64,000 nt of DNA from Escherichia phage REP2, in the sequence record OQ174501.1; one strand, given 5' to 3'. The position numbers and the translations under genes are program-made. The stretch's first letter is position 1. Every line of letters begins with the position of its first letter. This document shows positions 3,288 through 50,593 of the stretch, one piece after another. Under the pieces are notes generated by a model. It did not search any database. It was not told the DNA's origin and saw only the letters and a program-made list of their open reading frames with translations.

Positions 3288-3772
3288 TTTTAAAAACTCG
3301 CTGGTATGATTTAGATGATGGGGACGATGGCATTTCAGTTGATAGAGTTGACTGGAGTGGCTGTTCCGAAGATATGAAAAAATTGTTAATTAGGGAGTTT
3401 AGAATGGGATATCAAGCAGCTAAGCCATCTACTGTAACAGATGATAAATTCGTGTGTATTCAAAATGGTCGTGCTAAGTTAACGAACGCTGATTGGTTCA
3501 CAGATAAGAAGGTTATTCTGTGGTATATTATTAGTTTTCCTGTGACATCATTTGTATTTTGCTTCTTTGGAGAAAGTCCAGTAGGCAGAACGGAAGATTG
3601 GATTCTTTTAATTATACTTGTTAATATTTTTACAGCAGCAGTACTATCAGGAATATGGTGCGTGTTCATTGAAATGCCATGGCGGTTACGTAGGCAGCAA
3701 AAGATTTTTGATGAAAAGAAATATACTCAAAATTTAAATAATTTTATCACTGAATGCAGGAAATTAAAATGA
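3284..3772 (+). CDS. Small membrane protein, paralogue family
   Basis: 162 aa; TM segments; C-terminal TECRKLK; its stop overlaps the nudE start (ATGA). Confidence 0.55.
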   Translation: MILKTRWYDLDDGDDGISVDRVDWSGCSEDMKKLLIREFRMGYQAAKPSTVTDDKFVCIQNGRAKLTNADWFTDKKVILWYIISFPVTSFVFCFFGESPVGRTEDWILLIILVNIFTAAVLSGIWCVFIEMPWRLRRQQKIFDEKKYTQNLNNFITECRKLK

Positions 3773-4208
3773 AAACATTATCAGCTGGTATTATCTTTAT
3801 GACAGAAGATAAAGATTTATTTATGGGACGAGTTACTGGTTCTCGTAAGCCTGGAATGATGGCACATCGCTGGATATTCCAAAGGGGCGTGTAGAAAATT
3901 CTGATTTAAGCGCATTAGATGCAGCACGAAGAGAATGCTCAGAAGAGACTGGTTTTAACAATTATAATCCAGACCTTCTAGAAGACCTAGGTGTATTTAA
4001 ATATTCTAGTAATAAAGACTTACAGTTATTTTATTATACGATTCCAGTAGAGCATGAGATGTTCAGAAATTGCCGTTGTGAGTCTTATTTTGAAAATAAA
4101 GATGGCGTTATGATTCCAGAGATGGATGCTTTTGCTCTTATTCCTCGTACTCAGTGGCAATATGTGATGGGTCCTTCACTTTACCGAATAATGAACAGCC
4201 TCTTTTAA
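3769..4208 (+). pseudogene. nudE: Nudix hydrolase NudE (e.1) with apparent 1-nt deletion frameshift
   Basis: N-terminal 41 codons (MKTLSAGIIFMTED...MMAHRW) stop at 3892-3894; the rest, including the Nudix box GRVENSDLSALDAARRECSEETGF, continues in the -1 frame to 4208. The break is at tgg(g)atattcc. Confidence 0.6.
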
Positions 4209-6711: not shown

Positions 6712-7074
6712 ATGAAAGCATATCAAATTCTTGAAGGCACACATAAAGGTACTATTTATTTTGAAGATGGTATTCAAGCACGAATTATTGTCTCTAAAAC
6801 CTTTAAAGAGGACTCTTTTGTAGACCCAGAAATTTTCTATGGTTTGCATGCCCGTGAAATTGAAATTGAGCAACAGCCTACAGTTAAAATTGAAGGTGGT
6901 CAACACCTGAACGTTAACGTTCTGCGTCGTGAAACTCTGGAAGATGCAGTTAAGCATCCGGAAAAATATCCGCAGCTGACCATCCGTGTATCCGGTTATG
7001 CAGTTCGCTTTAACTCTCTGACTCCGGAACAGCAGCGCGACGTTATCGCTCGTACCTTCACCGAGAGTTTGTAA
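6712..7074 (+). CDS. Autonomous glycyl radical cofactor (GrcA/YfiD-like)
   Basis: C-terminal ~60 aa ([59 protein letters not shown]) matches E. coli GrcA with the glycyl-radical RVSGY motif; this half has host-like codon usage (ctg, cgt, ccg). Confidence 0.85.
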
Positions 7075-7295
7075 TGGCAAAGATAATTATTGAAGGTTCT
7101 GAAGATGTGCTAAATGCTTTCGCCGAGTGGTTTAGTAATTCAGGCGAACAGCAATTTAACGAAGCATGGAACATGGGTGATATTAATGGAATTTATCCTA
7201 CGACAGAAATTTCTGTTCAAGGATATGGCATTCATGAACCTATTCGTTTAGTTGAATATGATTTGGGAACAGGTGAGGAAGTAAAATATGATTGA
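7074..7295 (+). CDS. Hypothetical small acidic protein
   Basis: TAATG overlap with the upstream gene; 73 aa. Confidence 0.5.
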   Translation: MAKIIIEGSEDVLNAFAEWFSNSGEQQFNEAWNMGDINGIYPTTEISVQGYGIHEPIRLVEYDLGTGEEVKYD

Positions 7296-7554
7296 AGACA
7301 TTAAAGGTTATAAACCACATACTGACGATAAAATCAGTAAAGTGAATGCTATCAAAGATGCTGAAGTTCGTTTAGGGCTTATCTTTGATGCTTTATATGA
7401 TGAATTCTGGGAAGCATTTGATAGCTGTGAAGATGATGAACTCGCGAAGAATTACGCCGAAAGCCTCGATCAGTTAACTATTGCTAAAACGAAACTCAAA
7501 GAATCCAGTATGTGGGCTTGTCGTGCAGTGTTCCAACCAGAGGAAAAATACTAA
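7288..7554 (+). CDS. Hypothetical small helical protein
   Basis: 88 aa; SD upstream. Confidence 0.5.
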
Positions 7555-7832
7555 TGGCTCAATTAAGCGCAGGGTTTGGTTATGAGTATTATACTGCCCC
7601 TCGTCGTGTATCTGTTGCTCCTAAGAAAATTCAAAGTCTTGATGATTTCCAGGAAGTAGTTCGTAACGCTTTCCAGGACTATGCACGTTATCTTAAAGAA
7701 GATTCACAGGACTGTCTCGAAGAAGATGAAATTGCTTACTATGAGCAGCGTCTTGAACAGCTCAAAAATCTACATGAGGTTCGTGCAGAAGTTTCAAAGT
7801 CTATGAATAAATTGATTAGATTTAAAGAATAA
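7554..7832 (+). CDS. Hypothetical small helical protein (vs.3/vs.4 position)
   Basis: ATG 7554 after SD gagga (ORF track starts at 7512); 92 aa; immediately upstream of regB. Confidence 0.5.
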
Positions 7833-7866
7833 CTGTTTACTTTTCCTCTTGACTGTGGTATAATTT
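7830..7866 (+). promoter_or_regulatory. T4 early promoter (regB)
   Basis: GTTTAC 7835-7840, TATAAT 7859-7864. Confidence 0.65.
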
Positions 7867-7891
7867 TTCTATCAGTTAAGAGGAGAATAAC

Positions 7892-8353
7892 ATGACTATC
7901 AATACAGAAGTTTTTATCCGTCGAAATAAGCTTCGTCGTCACTTTGAGTCGGAGTTTCGTCAAATTAACAATGAGATTCGTGAGGCATCAAAAGCAGCAG
8001 GAGTCTCATCGTTTCATCTAAAATATTCTCAACATCTTCTTGATCGTGCAATTCAACGGGAGATTGATGAGACATATGTTTTTGAATTATTCCATAAAAT
8101 AAAAGACCATGTTTTAGAAGTTAATGAATTCCTGAGTATGCCTCCGCGTCCTGACATTGACGAGGATTTTATTGATGGGGTTGAATATCGTCCTGGACGT
8201 TTAGAAATCACAGATGGAAATCTTTGGCTTGGATTTACAGTTTGTAAACCTAACGCGAAGTTCAAAGACCCGTCACTTCAATGTAGGATGGCAATTATCA
8301 ACAGTCGTCGTTTACCAGGAAAGGCTTCTAAAGCAGTAATTAAAACTCAATGA
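7892..8353 (+). CDS. regB: RegB site-specific endoribonuclease
   Basis: 153 aa; MTINTEVFIRRNKLRRHFESEFRQINNEIREASK matches T4 RegB as I recall it. Confidence 0.93.
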   Translation: MTINTEVFIRRNKLRRHFESEFRQINNEIREASKAAGVSSFHLKYSQHLLDRAIQREIDETYVFELFHKIKDHVLEVNEFLSMPPRPDIDEDFIDGVEYRPGRLEITDGNLWLGFTVCKPNAKFKDPSLQCRMAIINSRRLPGKASKAVIKTQ

Positions 8354-8360
8354 GGTAAGC

Positions 8361-8906
8361 ATGAGAAAAGCACTACTCGCTGGTCTATTGGCCATTTCAA
8401 TGATGGCACATAGCTCCGAGCATACTTTCAGTAATGTCCAACTCGATAACATGCGTTACGCGTATCAATTCGGGGAACAATTTTCTAAGGATGGAAAATA
8501 TAAAACACACAAAAATATCCACAAGAGCGGATTAGGTCATATAATGGCTGCTATTTTATGGCAAGAAAGCTCTGCCGGAGTTAATTTAAAATCTAAACCA
8601 AAGCATCATGCCTATGGAATGTTCCAAAATTATTTGCCTACTATGCGAGCAAGAGTTAAGGAACTTGGTTATAATATGACCGATGCTGAAATAAAAAGAA
8701 TGTTGAATAAACGGTCCAATTCAGCTTCCTGGGCGTACATTGAACTTTCTTATTGGTTAAATATACATAAGGGCGATATAAGAAAGGCGATATCCTCTTA
8801 TAATTCGGGATGGAATGTTAAAGCAGGTTCTAAATATGCTTCTGAAGTCCTAGAAAAGGCTAATTACCTTAAAAATAATAAACTTTTGGAAATAGTAAAT
8901 GACTAA
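8361..8906 (+). CDS. Periplasmic lytic transglycosylase-like protein
   Basis: Signal peptide MRKALLAGLLAISMMAHS; family-1 LT motifs WQESSAG, GMFQ, SYNSGW. Confidence 0.65.
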   Translation: MRKALLAGLLAISMMAHSSEHTFSNVQLDNMRYAYQFGEQFSKDGKYKTHKNIHKSGLGHIMAAILWQESSAGVNLKSKPKHHAYGMFQNYLPTMRARVKELGYNMTDAEIKRMLNKRSNSASWAYIELSYWLNIHKGDIRKAISSYNSGWNVKAGSKYASEVLEKANYLKNNKLLEIVND

Positions 8907-9240
8907 AATTTTGGTTTTATGTATAGGATTAATTTCATTTTCTGTGTTAGCAGATACATCATATACTGAAATTAGAGAGTATGTAAACCGTACTGCCGCG
9001 GATTATTGTGGGAAAAATAAAGCATGCCAAGCTGAATTTGCGCAGAAATTAATATATGCATATAAAGACGGAGAAAGAGATAAATCAAGCAGATATAAAA
9101 ATGATACATTGTTAAAACGATATGCTAAAAAGTGGAATACTTTAGAATGTTCAGTTGCGGAGGAGAAAGATAAAGCCGCTTGTCATTCAATGGTTGACCG
9201 TTTAGTAGATTCTTATAATCGAGGATTGAGTACTAGATGA
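8899..9240 (+). CDS. Secreted Cys-containing small protein
   Basis: Signal peptide MTKILVLCIGLISFSVLA; four Cys; 113 aa. Confidence 0.5.
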   Translation: MTKILVLCIGLISFSVLADTSYTEIREYVNRTAADYCGKNKACQAEFAQKLIYAYKDGERDKSSRYKNDTLLKRYAKKWNTLECSVAEEKDKAACHSMVDRLVDSYNRGLSTR

Positions 9241-9716
9241 TTGTAAAATATATCAAGGGCGATATTGTCGCCCTATTTCTTCAAGGTAATATTATTGCGC
9301 ACGGGTGCAATTGCTTCCACACAATGGGCTCTGGCGTAGCGGGTCAATTAGCAAGAGCCTATCCCAAAATTTTAGAAATAGATAAAACCACTACCGAGTA
9401 CGGTTCTCGTGATAAATTAGGCGATATGTCTATTGTTTTTAAACATAGTCCTACGGGATTTGGTATATGCTATAACCTGTATACACAATACGAACCGGGT
9501 CCTAATCTTGATTATGGTGCTTTAGTAAACTGCATGATAGAATTAAATCTACAGGCAGAAACCCTTTTGTTTAAACCAGTAATTTACATTCCACGCATAG
9601 GTTGCGGTATTGCTGGCGGCGATTGGGATAAGGTTTCTAAATTAATCGACATGTTTACTCCTGATATTGATTTAATAGTGGTGGATTATGAAAGTACATT
9701 ACCCGCATCCGTTTGA
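9237..9716 (+). CDS. Macro-domain protein (ADP-ribose binding/processing)
   Basis: Macro motifs IIAHGCNCFHTMGSGVAGQLARA and IPRIGCGIAGGDW; 159 aa. Confidence 0.7.
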   Translation: MIVKYIKGDIVALFLQGNIIAHGCNCFHTMGSGVAGQLARAYPKILEIDKTTTEYGSRDKLGDMSIVFKHSPTGFGICYNLYTQYEPGPNLDYGALVNCMIELNLQAETLLFKPVIYIPRIGCGIAGGDWDKVSKLIDMFTPDIDLIVVDYESTLPASV

Positions 9717-9900
9717 TCCTAAAAACAAAGTGGAAATTATTCGTCAATGGGAACGCATTTGCCGTACTAAATGCCCAATTAATAGTCCACATGATGTAGA
9801 TAAAGACTATATTGGAACATTCGTTGAATATACCTTTATTGATAGGAAAGGTCGTAAACAACATGTAGAAGAATATTGTTTAAAGGTTACATGGTTATGA
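9688..9900 (+). CDS. Hypothetical protein
   Basis: 70-aa ORF, 3' end overlaps the next gene. Confidence 0.4.
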   Translation: MKVHYPHPFDPKNKVEIIRQWERICRTKCPINSPHDVDKDYIGTFVEYTFIDRKGRKQHVEEYCLKVTWL

Positions 9901-10103
9901 GCCAAACTAGTATTCTTAAAAATGCCCACTGCGAAAAGTGTGAATGGCCAGTTGTTTTTGCTTTATGTAATGATGAAATGGCTTGTGATTTCGATTATTG
10001 GTGCTATTGTTCTAATAAAGGATGCATCAATCATAAAGGTGAAGGATTTTATTCGGGATTTTATCCTTATCCAGATTTCGTTAAAGAAGGTAAACCGAAA
10101 TGA
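9897..10103 (+). CDS. Cys-rich small protein
   Basis: ATGA overlap start; 11 Cys in 68 aa. Confidence 0.45.
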   Translation: MSQTSILKNAHCEKCEWPVVFALCNDEMACDFDYWCYCSNKGCINHKGEGFYSGFYPYPDFVKEGKPK

Positions 10104-10273
10104 ATAGTTCTGAGTTACAATATGAAGTGTTACGTGAACTTGATAATTTAATTGAACTCGCTGTTAATAAAGGTTTTGCCATTGGAATTGGTCAAAAAGA
10201 TACTGGTCATTTAACTATGGAAATATTTAAGCAAAAGCGAATTATTTTAAAACTCCTGGAAATTAATATATGA
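10100..10273 (+). CDS. Hypothetical small protein (57 aa)
   Basis: ATGA overlap with both neighbours. Confidence 0.4.
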   Translation: MNSSELQYEVLRELDNLIELAVNKGFAIGIGQKDTGHLTMEIFKQKRIILKLLEINI

Positions 10274-10455
10274 GTCTGAGTAAAGAACAAAAAGATAAAT
10301 TGTTTGAGCTTATCCATGAACTTCTAGATGAGCATACAGAAGCAAACACCTTTTATGATGAATACGGCCCGCTATCTCCCGAACAGCAAGAAGAATTTGC
10401 TGATCGGTTTGATAAGAAAGAAAACGAATTAATAGCTTATGTGAATATGCTTTAA
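10270..10455 (+). CDS. Hypothetical small acidic protein
   Basis: 61 aa. Confidence 0.5.
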   Translation: MSLSKEQKDKLFELIHELLDEHTEANTFYDEYGPLSPEQQEEFADRFDKKENELIAYVNML

Positions 10456-10464
10456 GAAGGTGAT

Positions 10465-11046
10465 ATGGCGAGTTTAATTTTTACTTACGCAGCAATGAAT
10501 GCTGGAAAATCTGCTTCTCTTTTGACTGCTGCACATAATTATAAAGAACGCGGAATGGGTGTATTAGTTCTTAAGCCTGCTATTGATACTCGCGATTCTG
10601 TCTGTGAAGTCGTTTCTCGCATTGGAATTAAGCAGGAAGCGAATATTATTACGGATGATATGGATATTTTTGAGTTCTATAAATGGGCTGAAGCACAAAA
10701 AGATATTCATTGTGTATTTGTAGATGAAGCTCAGTTTTTAAAAACTGAACAGGTGCATCAATTAAGTCGAATTGTTGATACATATAATGTTCCTGTTATG
10801 GCTTATGGGCTAAGGACTGATTTCGCTGGAAAATTATTTGAAGGTTCTAAAGAACTTTTGGCGATTGCAGATAAACTTATTGAACTAAAGGCAGTTTGTC
10901 ATTGTGGTAAAAAAGCTATTATGACAGCTCGATTAATGGAAGATGGAACACCAGTTAAAGAAGGTAATCAAATCTGTATTGGTGATGAAATTTATGTTTC
11001 TTTGTGTAGAAAACATTGGAACGAATTAACTAAAAAGCTCGGTTAG
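10465..11046 (+). CDS. tk: Thymidine kinase
   Basis: 193 aa; P-loop AAMNAGKS; C-terminal Cys zinc motif CHCGKKA...C typical of TK1-type enzymes. Confidence 0.9.
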   Translation: MASLIFTYAAMNAGKSASLLTAAHNYKERGMGVLVLKPAIDTRDSVCEVVSRIGIKQEANIITDDMDIFEFYKWAEAQKDIHCVFVDEAQFLKTEQVHQLSRIVDTYNVPVMAYGLRTDFAGKLFEGSKELLAIADKLIELKAVCHCGKKAIMTARLMEDGTPVKEGNQICIGDEIYVSLCRKHWNELTKKLG

Positions 11047-11313: not shown

Positions 11314-11607
11314 ATGGCCTTAAAAGCAACGGCACTATTTGCCATGCTAGGATTAGCGTTTGCCTTATCTCCACCAATTGAAGCGAATGTCGATCCTCAT
11401 TTTGATAAATTTATGGAATCTGGTATTAGACACGTTTATATGCTTTTTGAAAATAAAAGCGTAGAATCATCTGAACAGTTCTATAGTTTTATGCGAACGA
11501 CTTATAAAAATGACCCGTGCTCTTCCGATTTTGAATGTATAGAGCGAGGCGCGGAGATGGCACAATCATACGCTAGAATTATGAACATTAAATTGGAGAC
11601 TGAATGA
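11314..11607 (+). CDS. rI: Lysis inhibition regulator RI (periplasmic antiholin-type)
   Basis: 97 aa with N-terminal signal/anchor MALKATALFAMLGLAFALS; located next to tk as in T4. Confidence 0.75.
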   Translation: MALKATALFAMLGLAFALSPPIEANVDPHFDKFMESGIRHVYMLFENKSVESSEQFYSFMRTTYKNDPCSSDFECIERGAEMAQSYARIMNIKLETE

Positions 11608-43455: not shown

Positions 43456-43692
43456 ATGAAAATTATTATGGGATGCTTAGCAGTTTGTTTAGTTGCATTA
43501 GCAGCAGTTCCATTTGTTAGTGTTGAAAATGATACTCAACCTGTGATTGAATCTAGCACCGTTATTCACACTAATGGTAAAATATCAGTTAAAATTGATG
43601 ATAATCTTCATGTGAATACAAATGGATCTTTAGGTGTGCAAATGGGTAATACCTGCATAAGCACTACTGGAGTAATTACTACTTGCATTTGA
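43456..43692 (+). CDS. Secreted small protein
   Basis: Signal peptide MKIIMGCLAVCLVALAAVPFVSV; ORF track starts at 43444. Confidence 0.5.
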   Translation: MKIIMGCLAVCLVALAAVPFVSVENDTQPVIESSTVIHTNGKISVKIDDNLHVNTNGSLGVQMGNTCISTTGVITTCI

Positions 43693-43702
43693 GGAAATTA
43701 TT

Positions 43703-44083
43703 ATGAAAATCGCTATTTTGGTTATTGCATTAGGTCTTACTGGTTGTGTAGCTCAAGGACCGGTAGTAAATCAGTCTGATGTAGGAAAAATTGTAAATTG
43801 TTCAAGCAAATTTTATAATCCTAATGTCAAGTGTTATAAAGAAGCTCCAAAACAGACAGTAGAACAAATGCAGGCGAATTTTGACGAAGCTATTCGTCCA
43901 GATGAATCTGCTCAAGCATATCGTAATTCTGATGTAATTACACGCGAAGAAAAAATTGAAAACTACTGCGCCGAAATTTGGGCTAATTGGGCTAATAATT
44001 ACCAATGGCGTACCGGTAAAAATGCTCCGATGGAGTATGTAGTGAATTCTTATAATTCATGTGTAAAAAATTTGACTAAGTGA
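43703..44083 (+). CDS. Lipoprotein
   Basis: Lipobox LTGC after MKIAILVIALG; 126 aa. Confidence 0.6.
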   Translation: MKIAILVIALGLTGCVAQGPVVNQSDVGKIVNCSSKFYNPNVKCYKEAPKQTVEQMQANFDEAIRPDESAQAYRNSDVITREEKIENYCAEIWANWANNYQWRTGKNAPMEYVVNSYNSCVKNLTK

Positions 44084-50299: not shown

Positions 50300-50593
50300 A
50301 TGAAAAAATTTATTTTTGCTACAATTTTTGCTTTAGCTTCTTGTGCTGCTCAGCCTGCTATGGCAGGTTATGATAAAGATTTGTGTGAATGGTCTATGAC
50401 TGCGGATCAGACTGAAGTTGAAACTCAAATTGAAGCAGATATTATGAATATCGTTGAGCGCGATCGCCCTGAAATGAAAGCTGAAGTGCAAAAACAGCTT
50501 AAGTCTGGCGGTATCATGCAGTACAATTATGTTTTGTATTGCGATAAAAACTTCAATAATAAAAATATCGTAACCGAAATCACAGGTGAATAA
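50300..50593 (+). CDS. sp: Spackle (periplasmic lysozyme inhibitor / superinfection exclusion)
   Basis: 97 aa with signal peptide MKKFIFATIFALASCAAQPAMA. Confidence 0.8.
   Translation: MKKFIFATIFALASCAAQPAMAGYDKDLCEWSMTADQTEVETQIEADIMNIVERDRPEMKAEVQKQLKSGGIMQYNYVLYCDKNFNNKNIVTEITGE

Follow-up and report, generated by a model that had tools for sequence, protein, structure and literature searches.

A putative exported peptidoglycan glycosidase and a candidate partner protein encoded by the adjacent genes vs.1 and vs of a T4-type phage

Phage T4 makes Spackle (gene 61.3), a small, helical, early periplasmic protein that acts on the gp5 tail lysozyme. Ivy, MliC/PliC and PliG are periplasmic inhibitors of lysozymes and transglycosylases; they are rich in β-structure, and Ivy inhibits MltB. 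In the pair Tge/Tgi of type VI secretion systems (T6SS), an immunity partner neutralizes a wall-cleaving enzyme, and in the type III secretion system (T3SS) pair EtgA-EscI, the EscI protein acts as an activator. The motifs E-S, GLMQ and AYNxG are those of the family-1 lytic transglycosylases. In this report, we compare with these systems the adjacent genes vs.1 and vs of Escherichia phage REP2 (record OQ174501.1), which lie in a 64,000-nt segment of a T4-type (Tequatrovirus) genome; this whole stretch is referred to below as the window. The vs open reading frame (ORF) has long been annotated as encoding a protein that modifies valyl-tRNA synthetase (ValRS), a cytoplasmic enzyme. We tentatively propose that vs.1 and vs instead constitute an early, exported, two-gene periplasmic module for peptidoglycan remodeling in which Vs regulates Vs.1, a reading that we consider quite possible but short of probable.

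The two genes and the similarity of vs.1 to SLT enzymes were already known; the notion of a periplasmic pair and the conflict with the annotation seem to be unreported, and a full-text literature search found nothing on a Vs signal peptide, on Vs export or on a vs.1-vs module. What appears to be new is the evidence, drawn from sequences and models, for Vs as a conserved, exported, disulfide-stapled protein that is tied obligately to an exported transglycosylase. A sequence-only reading had described the pair as two overlapping genes, and the ORFs do lie exactly at 8361-8906 and 8899-9240, with an 8-nt overlap. Their features are as follows.

8361..8906, + strand: vs.1 coding sequence, 181 aa; predicted exported GH23/SLT-type peptidoglycan glycosidase
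8361..8414, + strand: predicted Vs.1 signal peptide, residues 1-18, MRKALLAGLLAISMMAHS (MRK / ALLAGLLAISMMA / AHS; predicted cleavage after AHS)
8565..8567, + strand: codon of Glu69, the predicted single catalytic acid/base in W-Q-E-S-S; invariant in 42 homologs
8616..8627, + strand: G86-M-F-Q89, counterpart of GLMQ; G86, F88 and Q89 invariant in 42 sequences
8799..8810, + strand: Y147-N-S-G150, counterpart of AYNxG; Y147, N148 and G150 invariant; aligns with AYNTG of cod g-type lysozyme
8899..8906, + strand: vs.1/vs overlap ATGACTAA, 8 nt, vs.1 stop and vs start
8899..9240, + strand: vs coding sequence, 113 aa; annotated "valyl-tRNA synthetase modifier", Pfam PF26829
8899..8952, + strand: predicted Vs signal peptide, residues 1-18, MTKILVLCIGLISFSVLA (MTK / ILVLCIGLISFSV / VLA; predicted cleavage VLA|DTS)
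9007..9027, + strand: C37-x5-C43, first Cys pair, flanking the turn between helices 1 and 2; both invariant in 63 sequences
9148..9183, + strand: C84-x10-C95, second Cys pair, flanking the turn between helices 3 and 4; both invariant in 63 sequences

The Vs.1 and Vs proteins

The product of the first ORF is 99% identical to T4 Vs.1 (phrog_600); its predicted mature form has 163 residues, a mass of 18.8 kDa and a pI of 9.65. Residues 61-154 match the Pfam family SLT (PF01464), albeit at a borderline score (23.4 bits against a gathering score of 21.3, E = 4.8e-5), and a precomputed SLT match is present in only part of the Vs.1 homologs. The SLT similarity was already reported in 2006 (PMC1524935). 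An alignment of 42 homologs (41-83% identity) shows the motifs QE69SS, YG86MFQ89 and SY147NSG150, with Glu69 invariant and Ser70 conserved in at least 90% of the sequences. Glu69 and the motif blocks are also retained in homologs from RB43, Kuttervirus, Felixounavirus, Aeromonas phages and KVP40.

The AlphaFold2 model of Vs.1 (pLDDT 88.7, with residues 1-20 low) was compared with the Protein Data Bank (PDB) using Foldseek, which returned MltD, Slt, cod g-type lysozyme, a GH23 chitinase and the phi6 P5 lysin at probabilities of 0.98-1.0. For the first four, the TM-scores were 0.45-0.54, and the E-values were approximately 1e-2. A comparison of the sequence alone with solved structures gave no significant match; Vs.1 is thus a divergent GH23 protein. 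Taken together, motifs and model suggest that Vs.1 is a GH23 peptidoglycan glycosidase, probably a lytic transglycosylase whose one catalytic residue would be Glu69.

The product of the second ORF is 98% identical to T4 Vs (phrog_1256). Its precursor has a mass of 13.0 kDa, and the predicted mature form comprises 95 residues (11.0 kDa, pI 8.9). A profile search found 67 family members, every one carrying PF26829 ("ValRS_modifier"), and 63 of them were aligned, with identities to the window protein reaching down to about 20%. Across these 63 sequences, C37, C43, C84, C95 and G109 are invariant. Mature Vs has exactly four cysteines, a fifth (Cys8) being located within the signal peptide. The AlphaFold2 model (pLDDT 86 overall, greater than 90 across the mature part and approximately 50 for residues 1-20) has four helices, which span residues 12-37, 41-61, 68-84 and 89-110. 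Each Cys pair brackets one helix-turn-helix, the geometry that would be expected of two disulfide staples.

No relative of Vs outside its own family was found. In Foldseek searches with the model, the PDB yielded no significant match (best E = 2.2) and BFVD, a collection of viral structures, yielded only the Vs family itself. Relatives were also absent from Pfam (the set without PF26829), NCBIfam and PADLOC, and neither sequence nor profile searches of the PDB revealed any. When 1.84 billion representative proteins were scanned with a profile, 27 clusters were recovered; all their members are 77-134 aa long, and neither fusions nor a cellular family are among them. Outside the cysteines, the conserved residues are Y55, D57, G58, Y106 and G109. 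We consider the ends of helix 2 (Y55, D57, G58) and helix 4 (Y106, G109) to be a candidate binding surface in the model because the up-down topology of the bundle, which is all that this assignment draws on, places them opposite both stapled turns. Full-length, N-terminally His-tagged Vs has been found in inclusion bodies (PMC8076793); this insolubility fits a need for export and oxidation and proves neither. That Vs is a lipoprotein can be ruled out, as it has no lipobox and Cys8 is not conserved.

Signal peptides were called by inspection and with a simple rule of our own; the rule evaluates the n-region, h-region and cleavage residues, and demands a positive n-region, a hydrophobic h-region of 10-15 residues and small residues at positions -3 and -1. 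Among the window's 133 plus-strand ORFs with a length of 50 aa or more, only 6 are positive, and these include the known exported proteins RI (11314-11607) and Spackle (50300-50593), which serve as positive controls. At this frequency, about 0.3 adjacent pairs of positives would be expected per window, making such a pair uncommon. Conservation is a stronger argument for export than this chance estimate. All 63 aligned Vs homologs combine a positively charged n-region with a hydrophobic core and a cleavage motif of the AXA type, even though their N-terminal sequences are unrelated, and the Vs proteins of the window and of T4 differ solely in the c-region of the signal peptide, by an indel and substitutions. 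Likewise, the Vs.1 homologs of RB43, Kuttervirus, Felixounavirus, Aeromonas phages and KVP40 have signal peptides that are unrelated in sequence but canonical. Signal-anchor-release (SAR) endolysins have a weakly hydrophobic, uncleaved N-terminal membrane segment rich in Gly, Ala and Ser; in a comparison with them, the h-region of T4-type Vs.1 (ALLAGLLAISMMA) was found to be rich in Ala, Gly and Ser and to be followed by the cleavage motif AHS, and its homologs have standard signal peptides that are strongly hydrophobic. Judged by the three-part layout of their N-termini, Vs.1 and Vs both look like substrates of Sec and of signal peptidase I.

A Vs protein without a signal peptide, made from an internal start, was also considered. 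The first in-frame Met of Vs occurs only at residue 98, and the one alternative start near the N-terminus, a GTG at codon 16, is missing from T4. Thus, there is no conserved signal-less isoform, and this candidate was ruled out. Elsewhere in the window, we observed a second neighboring pair of exported-looking ORFs, at 43456-43692 (phrog_4189) and 43703-44083 (phrog_1754, with a lipoprotein-type LTGC motif).

The sequence-only reading had credited both proteins with signal peptides, the first with SLT motifs and the second with four cysteines. These descriptions hold. Each N-terminus has the three-part layout, which recurs in the 63 Vs homologs and in Vs.1 homologs of five further phage groups; all three motif blocks are present in Vs.1, whose Pfam SLT score lies above the cutoff; and the mature part of Vs has C37, C43, C84 and C95 as its only cysteines. 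The same reading had named a lack of muralytic activity and an unconserved catalytic Glu as refuting its idea; the predicted catalytic Glu69 is invariant in the 42 homologs. It had missed that the second gene is T4 vs, with its annotation as a ValRS modifier.

Linkage, expression and fitness of the gene pair

To describe the linkage of the two genes, 54 distinct viral-contig loci were collected from IMG/VR through their Vs.1 proteins (39-100% identity) and scanned with hidden Markov models of both families. In 54/54 loci, vs.1 is followed by an ORF of the Vs family in the same orientation. The gap between them is -8 to +3 nt in 53 of these, and in the remaining locus vs is split by a frameshift. 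The flanks, by contrast, vary. RegB is absent upstream in the Acinetobacter-phage loci, and in roughly half of the loci tk.4 is replaced downstream of vs by an exported phrog_4957 protein, with an ATGA overlap. The most divergent Vs representative is also encoded directly 3' of an SLT gene. In all eight RB43-type loci, which were found with a single RB43-type Vs query, one or two genes separate vs from vs.1, located 0.5-1.2 kb upstream. Vs was therefore found without Vs.1 in none of the 62 loci (54 + 8). The converse does occur: with heuristic filters off, no Vs was found within 2-3 kb of the exported Vs.1-like genes of KVP40, two Aeromonas phage genera, Kuttervirus and Felixounavirus. Because Vs.1 exists without Vs, we regard Vs.1 as the older and wider element and Vs as having been added in the lineages of the Tevenvirinae, the Acinetobacter phages and the RB43-type phages.

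Several observations on the surveyed loci (L numbers are our locus handles) merit separate mention. Phage KARL-1 has an unbroken run of genes, namely vs.1, vs, phrog_4957, phrog_6298 and antiholin rI, each of which encodes an N-terminal signal or membrane segment. A third exported gene (phrog_4957) after vs is common in T4-like phages (S16-type phages, Acinetobacter phages and others), with T4 and the window lacking it; such post-vs exported ORFs are located at 3366-3767 in L004 and at 3288-3713, 3713-4012 and 4009-4287 in L005. The Vs.1-like enzymes without Vs (L007, L008, L009, L075 and L076) each have a Cys near the C-terminus, and several have another just past the signal peptide; mature Vs.1 of the T4 type, the form that comes with a Vs, has none. 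A damaged vs stands beside an intact vs.1 in 2 of the 54 loci: L044 (4549-4876) and L024 (4541-4798). One of these copies is split by a frameshift, and the other is an internally shortened form of 85 aa; they may represent true decay or sequencing errors. Finally, Vs.1 homologs are widely mislabeled as "RegB" or "endoribonuclease", apparently from the neighboring gene (e.g., L007 1953-2570 and L008 1290-1838), and Vs is often labeled "valyl-tRNA synthetase", i.e., as the enzyme itself.

The 8-nt overlap suggests that the translation of vs.1 and vs is probably coupled. In T4, both genes belong to the early RNA class, and protein has been detected (PMC9697503 supplement), in keeping with the early expression that the sequence-only reading had assumed.

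In HIDEN-SEQ, a transposon study of T4, vs and vs.1 are both non-essential. Their mean insertion counts in LB liquid (26.6 and 22.6, respectively) are nonetheless about ten-fold under those of flanking non-essential genes, which range from 130 to 770 (regB 179, tk.4 290, vs.3 652, tk.3 767). On transfer from LB to M9-glucose, a minimal medium, vs is the most depleted gene (log2 fold change -2.19, adjusted p = 0); vs.1 drops to a lesser extent (-0.87, p = 0.0055, adjusted 0.16), and no other neighbor does. A clean vs deletion plates poorly on M9-glucose. On transfer from K-12 to the clinical strain CFE299, the log2 fold changes are -1.20 for vs.1 (adjusted p = 0.015) and -1.04 for vs, the values of neighboring genes remaining close to 0. 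Upstream regB insertions are undepleted in M9 (+1.17), which argues against strong long-range polarity. In CRISPRi-ART, a knock-down approach using dCas13d, vs.1 is among the five "Semi-Fit" T4 genes of unknown function, with vs scoring lower (PMC11879866 supplement). Thus, vs and vs.1 have a common fitness signature that is missing from their neighbors. The sequence-only reading had further suggested that Vs might be a regulatory partner of the enzyme and, as hypotheses, that the pair could serve injection, superinfection or the timing of lysis. The idea of a partnership gains from the coupling in 54/54 loci and from this joint profile; a regulatory role for Vs is a matter of interpretation, to which we now turn.

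Possible roles of Vs

According to our proposal, Sec would export both precursors, and signal peptidase I would then cleave them. Mature Vs.1, a basic protein of 18.8 kDa, would cleave the MurNAc-GlcNAc bond by means of Glu69, most likely as a lytic transglycosylase. Mature Vs (11 kDa) would be a four-helix protein whose hairpins are closed by C37-C43 and C84-C95 disulfides in the oxidizing periplasm. Produced in step with Vs.1, it would most probably be a stoichiometric regulator that restrains or directs the enzyme, such that the wall is remodeled and not breached ahead of holin-triggered lysis. The pair raises phage fitness, and does so to a greater extent in minimal medium. We infer the binding of Vs to Vs.1, catalysis, export, signal-peptide cleavage and the disulfides. 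A regulatory role is favored because an early, holin-independent, unregulated muralytic enzyme would be dangerous and because the defect of vs in M9 is larger than that of vs.1, which fits a restraining role.

A number of facts weigh against this proposal. Vs has no likeness to any known lysozyme or transglycosylase inhibitor in searches of the PDB, of BFVD and with profiles. Exported Vs.1-like enzymes with no Vs inside 2-3 kb exist in KVP40, Aeromonas phages, the Ackermannviridae and Felixounavirus; the enzyme therefore has no intrinsic need for Vs. Conserved adjacency can mirror inherited synteny instead of function, and the vs.1/vs overlap alone is weak evidence because overlapping genes are frequent in the early operons of T4. 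Local polarity on the coupled vs may account for some of the vs.1 phenotype. The minimal-medium phenotype of vs is equally compatible with a role in ValRS modification. Vs is not a mere antidote, since insertions in vs.1 and its knock-down are costly in themselves; for this reason, we disfavor the candidate explanation in which Vs does nothing but counter a toxic Vs.1. Lastly, classical work reportedly described a phage peptide (tau, about 10 kDa) that bound ValRS and had in vivo effects on temperature-sensitive ValRS; if this peptide is the vs product, then part of that product must act in the cytoplasm.

The nearest rival, which we judge unlikely, is that Vs is a positive partner of Vs.1, be it a periplasmic chaperone, an activator or a targeting subunit. 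There is a parallel in the lytic transglycosylases of secretion systems, which are activated by a structural partner. The tight coupling in 54/54 loci is in accord with this idea, as are the roughly equal depletion of vs and vs.1 in LB liquid, their joint movement on CFE299 and the intrinsic cost of vs.1 knock-down. Yet a protein that only serves Vs.1 would not be expected to have an M9 defect clearly exceeding that of the enzyme (-2.19 versus -0.87), and the apparently functional exported Vs.1 of the Vs-less lineages argues in the same direction.

The second rival is the annotation itself. Vs would then be the tau peptide, bound to cytoplasmic ValRS, with an N-terminus that is unused for export or that exports only a fraction of the Vs molecules; its adjacency to vs.1 would be inherited and would have no function. 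We think that the chances of this are low. The label is long-standing in T4 records and has passed into the name of the Pfam family, the vs deletion is defective specifically in a minimal medium, where amino-acid supply is limiting, and there is said to be classical genetics and biochemistry on a peptide of about 10 kDa. That mass, however, is nearer to the cleaved form of Vs (11.0 kDa) than to the 13.0-kDa precursor. Further difficulties are that 63/63 homologs combine a Sec-type signal peptide with four invariant cysteines suited to an oxidized periplasmic protein, that vs has no conserved internal start and that its linkage to vs.1 outlasts the turnover of both flanks. In the sequence record of 1986, the vs ORF is unnamed and appears as "ORF 60.9"; the name vs was therefore assigned later, and current T4 records give no basis for it. 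A cleavable signal peptide throughout the family and invariant, hairpin-stapling cysteines are unexpected in a cytoplasmic binder, and hence the annotation and our observations are in conflict. We do not claim that the annotation is wrong; under our proposal, however, ValRS binding would either be other than the main function of the vs ORF or have been assigned to the wrong ORF. It is possible, though doubtful, that Vs is not cytoplasmic at all and is instead the founding member of a family with a new fold, whose disulfide-stapled members regulate an exported phage lytic transglycosylase in the periplasm. Under that same doubtful premise, and jointly with it, the M9 defect would be a cell-envelope phenotype, and the tau peptide would be encoded elsewhere or the association with ValRS would be secondary.

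Less probable still is that both proteins are periplasmic but have separate targets, with Vs.1 acting on the wall or in lysis and Vs acting on a host envelope protein or a component of a superinfecting phage. Spackle and Imm provide parallels for the blocking of superinfection. Envelope-directed genes are grouped in T4, with RI located 0.7-3 kb downstream in most loci, and Acinetobacter phages have vs.1, vs, two more exported ORFs and rI in one contiguous run. The stronger M9 phenotype of vs would also be accommodated. Left unexplained, however, are the facts that Vs never occurs apart from Vs.1 (62/62 loci) and that the junction is fixed at -8 to +3 nt despite the turnover of its neighbors; in addition, Vs has no homology to Spackle or RI.

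It is very improbable that Vs.1 is a degenerate, non-catalytic SLT fold that solely binds peptidoglycan: the Pfam score that barely clears the cutoff (23.4 versus 21.3 bits), the insignificant sequence matches to solved structures and the Foldseek E-values of only about 1e-2 would be consistent with such a protein, but in 42 sequences and in five more distant lineages the Glu and the three motif blocks vary little or not at all, a pattern that speaks for selection acting on catalysis.

T4 is the reference phage, and vs is counted among its genes of "known function". If Vs is periplasmic and works with Vs.1, then a textbook annotation that has been copied, often in garbled form, to hundreds of phage genomes is wrong or incomplete, and the newly reported minimal-medium phenotype of vs calls for another explanation. 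T4-type phages would own an early, holin-independent, regulated wall-remodeling module, which might serve to weaken the wall before lysis, to relieve crowding in the periplasm, to permit growth on slow-growing cells or to time lysis. Vs, for its part, would represent a new protein fold controlling a lytic transglycosylase.

The surrounding region and related systems

Over positions 8000-9800, the window matches Escherichia phage REP3 at 100% identity and several hundred T4-like phages at 95-99%. With T4 as the reference, the gene order is regB, vs.1, vs, tk.4, tk.3, tk.2, tk.1, tk. The features that flank the pair are these.

7836..7864, + strand: promoter-like site TTTACT-17-TATAAT with TG, upstream of regB; from a consensus scan only
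7892-8353: regB, the neighbor 5' of vs.1
9237-9716: tk.4, the neighbor 3' of vs

The site at 7836..7864 is likely the early promoter of a regB-vs.1-vs-tk.4 transcript, in line with the early RNA class of these genes in T4, with the proviso that shuffled sequence yields matches of this kind at least as often. Like vs.1 and vs, the genes vs and tk.4 overlap, overlaps being routine in the operon. A search of 7000-10600 found no RNA elements, and the base composition is unremarkable. Directly after the vs stop and just inside the 5' end of tk.4, a GC-rich hairpin (AGGGCGATATTGTCGCCCT, 9256-9274) is followed by a T-rich tract. The terminator scan flagged it on both strands; a role in attenuation or in RNA stability is possible.

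Three neighboring genes deserve comment in their own right. The product of tk.4 is a macro-domain protein (Pfam E = 1.3e-7); its T4 ortholog was named AdfM, an anti-DarTG2 factor, in a 2025 preprint, and many records keep the label "phosphatase". The hairpin domain of Acb2/Tad1 (PF24729, E = 2.4e-18) is recognized in the product of vs.4 (7288-7554), which is therefore likely a cyclic-nucleotide sponge directed against CBASS/Thoeris, although its annotation says no more than "conserved hypothetical protein". Finally, vs.6 (6712-7074) encodes a GrcA-like autonomous glycyl-radical cofactor with the C-terminal motif RVSGYAV in its translation.

We return to the described systems with which this locus may be compared. 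Vs.1 has in common with the family-1 lytic transglycosylases and goose-type lysozyme (GH23: Slt70, MltC/D/E, GEWL and phi6 P5) the predicted α-helical, lysozyme-like fold, the E-S, GLMQ-like and AYNxG-like motifs and a predicted periplasmic location. It differs from them in being very divergent and in being a small, single-domain protein with a conserved N-terminal extension of 40 residues. Its product would be 1,6-anhydroMurNAc if it is a transglycosylase, or a reducing end if it is a lysozyme.

As to Vs, the name that the ORF bears ties it to the tau peptide or ValRS modifier (98% identity to T4 Vs, PF26829), whereas its signal peptide, stapled fold and obligate pairing with an SLT protein, all of them predicted properties or associations, point to the periplasm. 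It resembles the T4 antiholin RI (PF24205) in being small, helical, exported and early, in its C-x5-C motif and in its nearby location (11314-11607), and in Acinetobacter phages rI is contiguous with the vs.1-vs cluster. There is, however, no detectable homology between the two: the hhalign probability was 1.1% against T4-type RI and 2.1% against an alignment of 43 RI sequences. Like Spackle, Vs is small, helical, early and equipped with a signal peptide, and is proposed to act on a phage muralytic enzyme, but the two have no sequence or profile similarity (hhalign probability 1.5%). Paralogy of Vs with either protein is thus ruled out, the CSxxxEC likeness to RI being local only. Spackle also acts on an enzyme brought by incoming virions, whose gene is not its neighbor, whereas Vs and its presumed target would be translated together within one cell.

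Ivy is, like Vs, a small exported protein, and its disulfide-closed loop recalls C37-x5-C43. Ivy, MliC/PliC and PliG are β-rich, however, and the Vs model is all-helical and without a match in the PDB (best E = 2.2); inhibition by Vs is a proposal. The Tge/Tgi and EtgA-EscI pairs share with vs.1-vs the arrangement of an enzyme gene followed, in tight coupling, by the gene of a small exported partner. Those systems are cellular, and their enzymes act in another cell or at a secretion machine; Vs.1 and Vs, in contrast, would both be produced in one infected cell, and losing the enzyme carries a cost of its own. By analogy, then, the function that we would ascribe to the vs.1-vs pair most resembles those of enzyme-partner arrangements, namely Spackle/gp5, Ivy/MltB, the T6SS muramidase-immunity pairs and EtgA/EscI.

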